Assembly (NCBI GenBank): GCA_965231135.1
Contig: OZ246419.1
Span: 321,488 to 385,487, forward strand
DNA: 64,000 nucleotides
From: an uncultured Gammaproteobacteria bacterium
GTDB taxonomy: Bacteria > Patescibacteriota > Microgenomatia > UBA8517
Reading direction: 5' to 3'
In this document: positions 12,517-14,271 of the stretch, piece after piece
Layout: each line of letters begins with the position of its first letter
Position numbering within the stretch: position 1 is the first letter of the stretch
Notes under the pieces: generated by a model
What the model saw: only the letters and a program-made list of their open reading frames with translations
What the model was told of the DNA's origin: nothing
Database searches by the model: none
Program-made: the position numbers and the translations under genes

Positions 12517-14271
12517 TTGGATATGGGCTTTTTAAGAAAACTTTATCATTCTTCTAATTTTTGGCCTCTGGTAATTGTAATTTTATTTGCGATTTTGGCA
12601 GGCAAAGGTTTAATTGGTTCGGGGTATTTCAATATGCATGATGATTTGCAGATGATGAGGCAGCTTGAAATGGAAAAATGTTTTTTGACTTTGCAAATTC
12701 CTTGCCGTTGGGTACCTGATATGGGGTATGGATTTGGATTTCCTCTGTTTAATTTTTATCCGCCACTTCCGTATTTATATGGAGAAATATTTAGAGTTTT
12801 TGGTTTTGCATTTACTGAAACAGTTAAATTAACTTTTATTTCAGCCTTTATTTTTTCCGGAATATCAATGTATTACCTTGCAAAAGAATTTTGGGGAAAA
12901 CTTGGAGGAATAGTTTCATCCATTTTTTATGTTTGGGCACCATACCATGCAGTTGACATTTATGTTCGCGGAGCGATGGATGAAGCTTGGGCTTGGATAT
13001 GGATACCCTCAATACTTGCAAGCTCCTATCATTTGATTACAAAAAAAGAAAATAAAATAAGAAATATTATTTGGCTTGCAATTTCCTGGTTTGGAATTTT
13101 GCTTTCTCATAATTTAACAGCGATGATTTTTGCACCTGTATTTATTGGATGGTGTGCTATTTGGCTAATTAAAAATAATTACAAAAAAATATTTGGTACA
13201 AATTCAATTAGGACCGTATTAAATTTTATAGCTGCTGGAATTTTGTCACTTGGGCTTGCAGCATTTTTTACTCTTCCGGTTTTGCTTGAACAAAAATATG
13301 TGCAAACAAATACTTTGATTGAAGGGTATTATGATTTCTCGGCACATTTTGCAACGATAAAACAACTTTTATTTTCCAGATTTTGGGGATATGGGCCATC
13401 TGTTTGGGGAGCAAATGATGGATTAACTTTTCAAGTAGGTTACTTGTACTGGATTCTACCAATAATAATTTTGGGAATTGGATTTTTGTGGTTTATTAGA
13501 AAAAGAAAGATTCAAGATTGGATGTTAATAGTAGGATACTTTTTTGTTGTTGGATGGGTTGCGGTTTTTATGATTCATAATAAATCAACGCCAATTTGGG
13601 AACATATCAATACGCTTCGATTTGTGCAATTTCCCTGGAGATTTTTAACAATTGTTGTTTTTAGTTTTTCTTTTGCTATTGGAAGTTTGGCAAAAATTTT
13701 GCCAAATAAATTTTACTTTTTAATTTTTGCTGCTGTTGCAGGACTTCTTATTATGAACTGGAATTATTTTGTCCCTGAGTTTGGACATCTTGGACCTTTG
13801 ACTGATGCACAAAAATTCACAGGAGCTGCATGGGACCTTCAGCGAACTGCTGGAATTTATGATTATTTACCTGTTACTGCTGTAACTGCGCCAAAAGCTC
13901 CAATGACAAATTTTGTAGAAGTACTTGGAGGAGATGCAAAAGCGAGCAATATAAACTTAGGAACAAATAATAATAGTTTTGATATTAACGTGACAGATAA
14001 TGCGATTATTCGTCTCGGCGTTTTTGAATTTCCTGGTTGGAAAGTTTTCGTTGATGGAAAAGAAATTCCAACTTTTGTGCCAAAGACTGAGCAGTGGGGG
14101 CGCATGTATGTCATGATTCCGGTAGGGGCGCATCATGTACAAGTTCATTTATATGACACACCAATAAGAACCATTGGAAATATTATTTCACTTATCTCAT
14201 GGATAGGACTTGGTGCCTTTTTAATGTTACAATTTAATCGTGGAAGATATTCATCCAGAAGAGCATTTTGA
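12517..14271 (+). CDS. large polytopic membrane protein, putative GT-C-like glycosyltransferase, paralog family C
   Basis: 584 aa. Conserved N-terminal loop QIPCRWVPDMGYGFGFPLFNFYPPLPY is shared with ORF 32791-34314 (QIPCRWAPDSGAGFGEPLFNFYGQFVY). It has about 12 or more TM helices and a C-terminal soluble domain. Confidence 0.6.
   Translation: MDMGFLRKLYHSSNFWPLVIVILFAILAGKGLIGSGYFNMHDDLQMMRQLEMEKCFLTLQIPCRWVPDMGYGFGFPLFNFYPPLPYLYGEIFRVFGFAFTETVKLTFISAFIFSGISMYYLAKEFWGKLGGIVSSIFYVWAPYHAVDIYVRGAMDEAWAWIWIPSILASSYHLITKKENKIRNIIWLAISWFGILLSHNLTAMIFAPVFIGWCAIWLIKNNYKKIFGTNSIRTVLNFIAAGILSLGLAAFFTLPVLLEQKYVQTNTLIEGYYDFSAHFATIKQLLFSRFWGYGPSVWGANDGLTFQVGYLYWILPIIILGIGFLWFIRKRKIQDWMLIVGYFFVVGWVAVFMIHNKSTPIWEHINTLRFVQFPWRFLTIVVFSFSFAIGSLAKILPNKFYFLIFAAVAGLLIMNWNYFVPEFGHLGPLTDAQKFTGAAWDLQRTAGIYDYLPVTAVTAPKAPMTNFVEVLGGDAKASNINLGTNNNSFDINVTDNAIIRLGVFEFPGWKVFVDGKEIPTFVPKTEQWGRMYVMIPVGAHHVQVHLYDTPIRTIGNIISLISWIGLGAFLMLQFNRGRYSSRRAF

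Follow-up and report, generated by a model that had tools for sequence, protein, structure and literature searches.

The 64,000-nucleotide stretch analyzed here (positions 321,488 to 385,487 of contig OZ246419.1; hereafter the window) encodes two large membrane proteins with a shared cysteine-containing external loop. Open reading frame (ORF) A, or FamC_A, lies at 12517..14271 on the plus strand and encodes 584 amino acids from a TTG start codon. ORF B (FamC_B), at 32791..34314 on the plus strand, encodes 507 amino acids. BLASTP aligned the two proteins with 39% identity over 418 amino acids (E = 1e-92), and the similarity spanned nearly the whole membrane domain, beyond the loop alone. This far exceeds chance similarity and identifies the two, by sequence, as paralogs, with a shortened C-terminal extracytoplasmic domain in ORF B. 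An earlier sequence-only reading of the window had noted loop segments common to both ORFs, and all four peptides it quoted were recovered on the plus strand where it had placed them: HDDLQMMRQLEMEKC (residues 41-55) and LQIPCRWVPDMGYGFGFPLFNFY (residues 59-81) in ORF A, and QDFHIFRLIEFDKC (residues 35-48) and LQIPCRWAPDSGAGFGEPLFNFY (residues 52-74) in ORF B. The NCBI protein identical (100%) to ORF A is a hypothetical protein of 582 amino acids from a "Patescibacteria group bacterium" metagenome-assembled genome (MAG); the true start of ORF A is therefore probably the ATG at 12523, which gives the same length. Promoter and terminator scans found fewer promoter-like sites around ORF A than in shuffled sequence.

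In hmmscan searches of Pfam, ORF B matched PF10131 (PTPS_related) with 33.8 bits (E = 1.7e-8; residues 71-401 on profile positions 1-309 of 621), the gathering score of this family being 26.4 bits. PF09586 (YfhO; gathering score 28.5 bits) gave no match to ORF A or ORF B at E ≤ 1, and neither ORF matched the ArnT/PMT_2 models PF13231 and PF02366. Among the three families put forward for this search by the sequence-only reading, PF10131 was thus found in ORF B and missed in ORF A, and PF09586 and PF13231 were found in neither. The same domains were surveyed in 85 relatives spanning 27-70% identity to ORF A. PF10131 was detected in 66 of them, PMT_2 in 19 and YfhO in 12 (E ≤ 1e-3), together with DUF6541 in three, STT3 in one and the AftD GT-C domain in one. 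Family matches fall on the N-terminal half of the PF10131 model (about positions 1-310 of 621), which starts at the PLFNFY region (residue 71 of ORF B) and leaves the HD...C-x7-C-RW part of the loop uncovered. PF10131 belongs to the Pfam GT-C clan CL0111 (PMC7801869). Its members are membrane proteins of bacteria and archaea; membership gives the fold class only, and no function is attached to the family.

A profile of 150 family members was aligned by hhalign with a YfhO-domain protein from a related locus (L003:18555-20732; 726 amino acids, PF09586) at a probability of 98.6% (E = 8.4e-16, 299 columns). The alignment ran through the loop motif, pairing the YfhO-type segment GGQLPLWNPYILMGTPLL with the FamC segment DGQIPCRWVPDMGYGYGYPLF. 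Because it passes straight through this motif, the FamC loop is regarded as the family version of the first external loop of YfhO. A PMT_2 paralog from the window aligned much more weakly than YfhO (80% probability, E = 1.4e-5, TM3-TM6 region of the transmembrane (TM) helices). ORF A and ORF B are best filed under PF10131, a sister family of YfhO in the GT-C clan, and the earlier guess of PTPS-related or YfhO-like GT-C proteins is borne out by the PF10131 match, the YfhO profile alignment and the fold described below. The family is very large: an exhaustive HMMER search with ORF B as query retrieved 10,174 cluster representatives (50% identity) at E ≤ 1e-3, of which 1,392 also reached E ≤ 1e-30. 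The strict pattern GYGxPLFNFY occurred in at least 593 GTDB species representatives. The closest ORF A relatives in species-representative genomes came from Woese-, Blackburn-, Shapiro-, Ames- and Daviesbacteria (Microgenomates).

The AlphaFold2 model of ORF A, built from a 150-sequence alignment, had a pLDDT of 96.7 and a pTM of 0.94. It consists of TM1 (residues 15-28), a first external loop (approximately residues 29-98) with helices at 45-57, 77-80 and 84-94, a TM bundle extending to about residue 444, a beta-sandwich (residues 467-545) and a C-terminal TM helix (residues 549-583). When the model was compared with the PDB using Foldseek, the first 29 matches were all GT-C enzymes (probability 0.84-1.00), including AftA, AftD, AglB, STT3, PglB, DPY19, EmbA/B, ArnT, ALG12 and ALG9. 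The best of these (AftA, AftD, AglB, STT3 and PglB) had E-values of 3.7e-5 to 2e-3 with a probability of 1.0. PDB sequences gave only chance-level matches to ORF A, ORF B and the family profile. On the predicted structure, the fold class is settled as GT-C, with no close solved relative of FamC. Structure prediction had been named in the sequence-only reading as a check on its proposal, with a fold foreign to glycosyltransferases as the adverse outcome; the predicted fold is that of a glycosyltransferase.

The core of external loop 1 comprises residues 41-81 of ORF A (12637..12759, plus strand), with H41-D42, R48, C55, P62, C63, R64, W65, G74, P76, F78 and Y81, and residues 35-74 of ORF B (32893..33012, plus strand). 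In the model, the loop lies between TM1 and the next TM helix and is predicted to be extracytoplasmic. An outward orientation is also indicated by natural fusions, described below, since these join a nucleotide-sugar-using, and hence cytoplasmic, GT2 domain to the N-terminal side of TM1. In an alignment of 167 sequences, nine positions of the loop were near-universal: D42 (98%), R48 (96%), P62 (97%), R64 (98%), W65 (90%), G74 (98%), P76 (99%), F78 (93%) and Y81 (95%). Outside the loop, G152, E156, H198 and Q371-F-P-W-R375 were invariant. D42 sits 14 residues past TM1 and represents the conserved acidic residue of the first external loop; by likeness to other GT-C enzymes, it is a candidate catalytic or metal-binding Asp.

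The loop cysteines are Cys55 (12679-12681) and Cys63 (12703-12705) in ORF A, together spanning 12679..12705 on the plus strand, and Cys48 (32932-32934) and Cys56 (32956-32958) in ORF B. Their spacing is C-x7-C (CFLTLQIPC in ORF A and CIQSLQIPC in ORF B), correcting the CxxxxxxxxC spacing of eight residues given in the sequence-only reading. ORF B has two cysteines in 507 residues, exactly the loop pair, and ORF A has three, at residues 55, 63 and 213. Both cysteines were present in 123 of the aligned sequences, neither in 42 and a single one in 1. The Cys-less sequences, about a quarter of the sampled divergent relatives, usually carried Ala/Ser and Val/Pro at the two positions. On a neighbor-joining tree built without the two cysteine columns, which is approximate only, the Cys-less state appeared in six clades and required at least five state changes. 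A single ancestral split as the source of the covariation was rejected, given these at least five changes and 6 separate Cys-less clades on the approximate tree. Both cysteines were found in all 82 ORF A orthologs from 80 species-level genomes, and three tandem paralogs with neither of them were found within the same ORF A-ortholog loci. L034, L043 and L044 have tandem arrays of three FamC paralogs, and one copy of the three has no cysteine at the two positions ('GQIPPRVVPDLS...'); FamC proteins with and without the pair therefore coexist in one genome.

The concerted gain and loss of the two cysteines, their extracytoplasmic location and a protein otherwise almost free of cysteine point to a disulfide (Cys55-Cys63 in ORF A, Cys48-Cys56 in ORF B) that most likely stiffens the catalytic loop. 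The predicted bond would probably connect Cys55, at the end of the loop helix (residues 45-57), with Cys63 in the P-C-R-W turn. The cysteine pair is not family-wide: one large branch of the family most likely uses it as an optional structural element that varies by lineage and does not belong to the catalytic core. Regarding the loop that had earlier been called unusual, the pair itself is real, and the loop around it is the family's version of the first external loop of YfhO.

Several natural fusions join FamC to other glycosyltransferases. Continuous ORFs combining a GtrB-like GT2 with FamC were found in Woesebacteria (L059:5191-7680) and Daviesbacteria (L072:5224-7674), encoding 829 and 816 amino acids, respectively. 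The best PDB matches of their GT2 domain were GtrB (E = 6.6e-17), DPMS and ArnC, and this domain leads directly into TM1 of FamC, followed by 'MHDDLQAMRQL...C-x7-C-RW'. A TarS-like GT2 was fused to a FamC of the ORF B-like type in five cluster representatives (P0130, P0143, P0149, P0158 and P0187; 821-832 amino acids). At least three representatives (P0122, P0157 and P0241; about 950-1,100 amino acids) were FamC-PMT_2 fusions, forming a double GT-C protein. Judged from these fusions, FamC is functionally linked both with a lipid-sugar synthase and with the neighboring PMT_2 enzyme.

Gene order around FamC was compared in 80 species-level loci, in which ORFs were labelled by phmmer with the window proteins. 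Upstream of ORF A in the window lie a GT2 of 259 amino acids (8864..9643, plus strand), which is DPMS/ArnC/GtrB-like and a candidate polyprenyl-phosphate sugar synthase that would make the donor, and a PMT_2-type GT-C of 517 amino acids (10365..11918, plus strand). This GT2 and a second one at 2140-2853 match DPMS, ArnC and GtrB across their catalytic domains. In 62 of 75 loci an ortholog of the GT2 at 8864-9643 lay upstream of FamC_A at a distance of two genes, and in 68-70 of 75 an ortholog of the PMT_2 gene was the immediate upstream neighbor of FamC_A. The pairing with a GtrB-like GT2, which the sequence-only reading had suggested examining by co-occurrence, accordingly holds in 62 of 75 related loci, and the two genes are fused in two genomes. 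Three ORF A orthologs on long contigs (55-61% identity) had the same neighbors.

The end of ORF A overlaps the gene for a Wzx-type flippase (Polysacc_synt_3; 14240..15733, plus strand). Of 72 loci, 52 had Wzx as the gene directly after FamC and 66 had it no more than three genes away, and an overlap of the two ORFs was usual (median -28 nucleotides, with longest-ORF starts used). Wzx is followed by Unk561, a Pfam-orphan membrane protein (15690..17375, plus strand), an arrangement found in about 48-60 loci. After Unk561 come three GT2 genes (17749-18648, 18645-19562 and 19553-20314, plus strand), which belong to the conserved cytoplasmic glycan-assembly part, and a GT4 gene (20597-21610, plus strand), the last of that part. 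The cassette of GtrB-like GT2, PMT_2, FamC, Wzx, Unk561, three GT2 and GT4 is conserved across Microgenomates, and the FamC orthologs of species with the conserved cassette share 40-58% identity.

Two genes interrupt this order in the window. A 182-amino-acid ORF without a family match (11919-12467, minus strand) lies between PMT_2 and ORF A and had no match in any of the 80 loci; in syntenic loci the PMT_2 and FamC_A genes abut or overlap without it. An SDR gene (9640-10341, plus strand) was not present at this position in L001, L003 and L004; a single locus among the 80, L006, had it labelled, and there it stood downstream of FamC. Each of the two genes looks like a lineage-specific insertion that breaks up an otherwise conserved cassette. 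About 35 loci in addition to L006, L009, L010 and L013 come from MAG records titled "uncultured Gammaproteobacteria bacterium", and carry the Microgenomates-type cassette in the same order with FamC proteins 40-57% identical; the taxonomy in these titles appears to be a placeholder or an error.

ORF B overlaps a PMT_2 gene on each side. The upstream one is a PMT_2-type GT-C (31197..32798, plus strand) whose last 8 nucleotides are shared with the start of ORF B, and the downstream region (34295..41768, plus strand) contains PMT_2 genes at 34295, 36574 and 38187, a GT2 at 39862 and a GT4 at 40755, with a PEMT/ICMT-like gene (35970-36614) on the minus strand. The order FamC_B, three PMT_2, GT2 and GT4 recurs in L086. 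Upstream of the FamC_B-like gene in that locus (L086:234-3357) are SIS, HAD, nucleotidyltransferase and epimerase genes, a set that resembles a pathway for nucleotide-activated heptose or another sugar and may give a hint of the donor in the B-type cluster. Unk404, a membrane protein of 404 amino acids without a Pfam match (29949-31163, plus strand), recurs as a neighbor of FamC in some twelve of the 80 loci. It had no profile similarity to FamC or Unk561.

Pfam had no match for Unk561, for 50 of its orthologs or for 120 database relatives; the relatives number at least 1,394. The Unk561 profile aligned with that of FamC at 91.8% probability (E = 7e-7), with the invariant H52-D53 of Unk561, which follows TM1, placed on H41-D42 of FamC. 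A further invariant motif, G155-E156-S157, falls in a loop of low confidence in the AlphaFold2 model, which had an overall pLDDT of 90.3. In a structural comparison, the 19 top-ranking matches were all STT3, AglB, PglB or DPY19 (E = 1.7e-8 to 7e-6, TMq 0.48-0.58), and the C-terminal globular domain separately matched the C-terminal domain of AglB. No WWDYG motif was seen in Unk561, and the protein is therefore named oligosaccharyltransferase-like, short of oligosaccharyltransferase. From its predicted structure, Unk561 may be an unrecognized bacterial branch of oligosaccharyltransferase-like enzymes.

The remainder of the window was surveyed by Pfam scans that covered almost every ORF of at least 120 amino acids. 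The window has a GC content of approximately 30%, nearly all of its genes lie on one strand, and it forms a glycosylation island with 13 PMT_2-type GT-C proteins, 2 FamC proteins, 1 PIG-V-like GT-C (41731-42891) and Unk561. Approximately 17 GT2 and 5 GT4 proteins, two Wzx-type flippases (14240 and 42867), several methyltransferases and a polysaccharide deacetylase (48207-48971) were also present. No teichoic-acid synthesis genes were recognized among the scanned ORFs. A protein of 627 amino acids (59101-60984, plus strand) has an RmlD-like dTDP-4-dehydrorhamnose reductase domain (E = 5e-67) fused to a GT2, which suggests that a single polypeptide couples the synthesis of rhamnose to its transfer. 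Another, a PMT_2 GT-C of 689 amino acids (50147-52216, plus strand), carries a C-terminal F5/8 type C (discoidin) domain that is possibly a carbohydrate-binding module.

Among known systems, the closest comparison is with YfhO (PF09586) of Bacillus subtilis, Staphylococcus aureus and Listeria, which decorates lipoteichoic or wall teichoic acid with N-acetylglucosamine (GlcNAc) taken from C55-P-GlcNAc, the product of the GT2 CsbB. FamC and YfhO are homologous over about 300 residues and both have the GT-C fold. They have a common loop-1 motif ('GGQLPLWNP...GTPLL' in the YfhO type and 'DGQIPCRWVPD.GYGYGYPLF' in FamC), a GtrB/CsbB-like GT2 partner is encoded with the GT-C gene in both, and some FamC relatives pass the PF10131 and PF09586 thresholds together (P0122). 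FamC proteins are shorter, however, with 507-584 amino acids against 726 in the compared YfhO-domain protein (profile length 835), and outside the membrane they carry a much smaller domain, a beta-sandwich. Neither FamC cysteine has a counterpart in the aligned YfhO-domain protein, the FamC host is a Patescibacterium, and the FamC partners are Wzx, Unk561 and PMT_2. The small GtrA-family flippase of the three-component YfhO system was not found among the scanned window ORFs. With AftA, AftD, AglB, STT3 and PglB, FamC shares the N-terminal TM module, the long first external loop and an extracytoplasmic C-terminal domain, but in FamC this domain consists of a small beta-sandwich, after which comes an additional TM anchor at the C-terminus. 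The ArnT/PMT_2 (GT83/GT39-like) paralogs in the window belong to the same clan and the same gene clusters, and FamC-PMT_2 fusions exist, but their external-loop-1 motif differs from that of ORF A and ORF B. The finding does not represent a new kind of system; FamC proteins are uncharacterized members of a GT-C family with a probable, lineage-variable disulfide.

By analogy with these enzymes, FamC is likely to be an extracytoplasmic GT-C transferase within PF10131 that uses polyprenyl-phosphate sugars. One or both of the GtrB/DPMS-like GT2 proteins (8864-9643 and 2140-2853) would make a polyprenyl-phosphate-linked sugar at the cytoplasmic face, which would then be flipped to the outer face and bound in FamC among its TM helices and external loop 1. 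There, D42, just after TM1, would activate the acceptor or bind a metal, and R48, R64, K104, R151, H198 and R375 of ORF A would hold the phosphate. FamC would pass the sugar to an extracytoplasmic acceptor, the binding of which is probably helped by the C-terminal beta-sandwich. In the cassette, the three GT2 and the GT4 would assemble an oligosaccharide, Wzx would flip it and Unk561 would probably transfer it; FamC and the neighboring PMT_2 would most likely add further sugars to this glycan or its carrier.

Several observations weigh against this proposal. ORF A itself had no Pfam match at E ≤ 1 and so missed the PF10131 threshold, and NCBIfam had no match for it or for ORF B. The missing PF10131 match is attributed to the sensitivity of the model, because ORF A shares 39% identity with ORF B, and the family is detected in 66 of 85 relatives, close ORF A orthologs among them. 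The solved GT-C enzymes are distant from ORF A, with TM-scores of 0.35-0.45 and 9-15% identity. No characterized member of PF10131 and no paper assigning it a function were found in the searchable literature, and nothing relevant was found there on GT-C enzymes of Patescibacteria, oligosaccharyltransferases of candidate-phyla-radiation bacteria or envelope glycosyltransferases of Microgenomates. The donor, the acceptor and the chemistry of FamC are all argued from analogy. A lipid-phosphate-linked sugar as donor is suggested by the GT2 partner and the fusions, and teichoic acid as acceptor would follow the YfhO precedent. Given the TarS-like fusions, a lipid-sugar synthase is not the only type of GT2 that is fused to FamC. 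The scanned window ORFs also included no initiating phosphoglycosyltransferase and no GtrA-family flippase (PF04138), only flippases of the Wzx type; a gene fusing GT2 with GtrA_DPMS_TM is found upstream of the cassette in L001 and L003.

Three other functions were considered for FamC. It could be an en-bloc transferase (an oligosaccharyltransferase or ligase) that, like PglB, AglB and STT3, moves a Wzx-flipped polyprenyl-diphosphate oligosaccharide onto an acceptor, either a protein or the wall. This is consistent with the position of FamC, which adjoins and overlaps Wzx in 52 of 72 loci and lies within 3 genes of it in 66 of 72, and with the presence of AglB, STT3 and PglB among its significant fold matches. 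A conserved D-Y-x-P (residues 449-452; PDYWP in ORF B) also follows the last helix of the TM bundle, in roughly the place of WWDYG in oligosaccharyltransferases. FamC has no WWDYG, however, but only D449-Y450-x-P452 in ORF A or PDYWP in ORF B, and the candidate closer to that role is Unk561, which matches oligosaccharyltransferases with E = 1.7e-8 and a TMq of up to 0.58, against E = 1.5e-4 and a TMq of 0.42 for FamC, and whose C-terminal domain also matches that of AglB. The best fold matches of FamC, AftA and AftD, use lipid-monophosphate monosaccharide donors, a monosaccharide lipid donor is likewise indicated by the GtrB-like GT2-FamC fusions, and YfhO, the closest characterized sister family, uses C55-P-GlcNAc (PMC8035078). 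En-bloc transfer by FamC is thus considered unlikely.

It is quite improbable that FamC is a processive glycan polymerase or chain extender, equivalent to Wzy or similar to the Emb and Aft enzymes, which would synthesize a polymer on the outer side of the membrane. Relatives of the YfhO type attach single sugars (PMC8035078), and the lack of a recognizable Wzy polymerase in the cassette, which would favor such a role, presents no difficulty if Unk561 transfers the oligosaccharide en bloc. The best structural matches, AftA and AftD, do build arabinan, and the C-terminal beta-sandwich could act as a carbohydrate-holding domain, but the data fit single addition as well as processive activity. A non-catalytic membrane scaffold or a pterin-related protein, in which the conserved loop would serve only as a binding surface, is scarcely credible. 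It draws on the PTPS-related names of some database records and on PF10131 being a family without enzymatic data; against it stand the GT-C fold, an Asp after TM1 with Arg, His and Glu in the loops, as in active GT-C enzymes, and the GT2 and PMT_2 fusions, which link the family to glycosylation. None of the 85 members scanned contained a PTPS catalytic domain, and a pterin-synthase function was rejected on this ground.

A transferase using polyprenyl-phosphate sugars remains the preferred function for FamC. A broader interpretation, in which the cassette is an undescribed, lineage-wide system for envelope or protein glycosylation in Microgenomates, is put forward tentatively and is more doubtful than this. 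FamC would then form a GT-C subfamily of its own, specific for its own acceptor and with a catalytic loop stapled by a disulfide, and Unk561 would belong to a new group of bacterial oligosaccharyltransferases, STT3/AglB-like and overlooked by current profile libraries.

As a result of this analysis, two "hypothetical" membrane proteins can now be annotated as PF10131/YfhO-like GT-C glycosyltransferases. The annotation gap around them is large, with approximately 10,000 cluster representatives and no characterized member, and Pfam misses some of the family, including ORF A. The most interesting results are by-products, namely the cassette conserved in Microgenomates and its oligosaccharyltransferase-like orphan, Unk561. 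Bacteria of the candidate phyla radiation are uncultivated and genome-reduced, and their surface chemistry is almost unknown. More than 60 kb given to glycosylation, together with a conserved cassette, offers an entry point to how such cells build or decorate their envelope.

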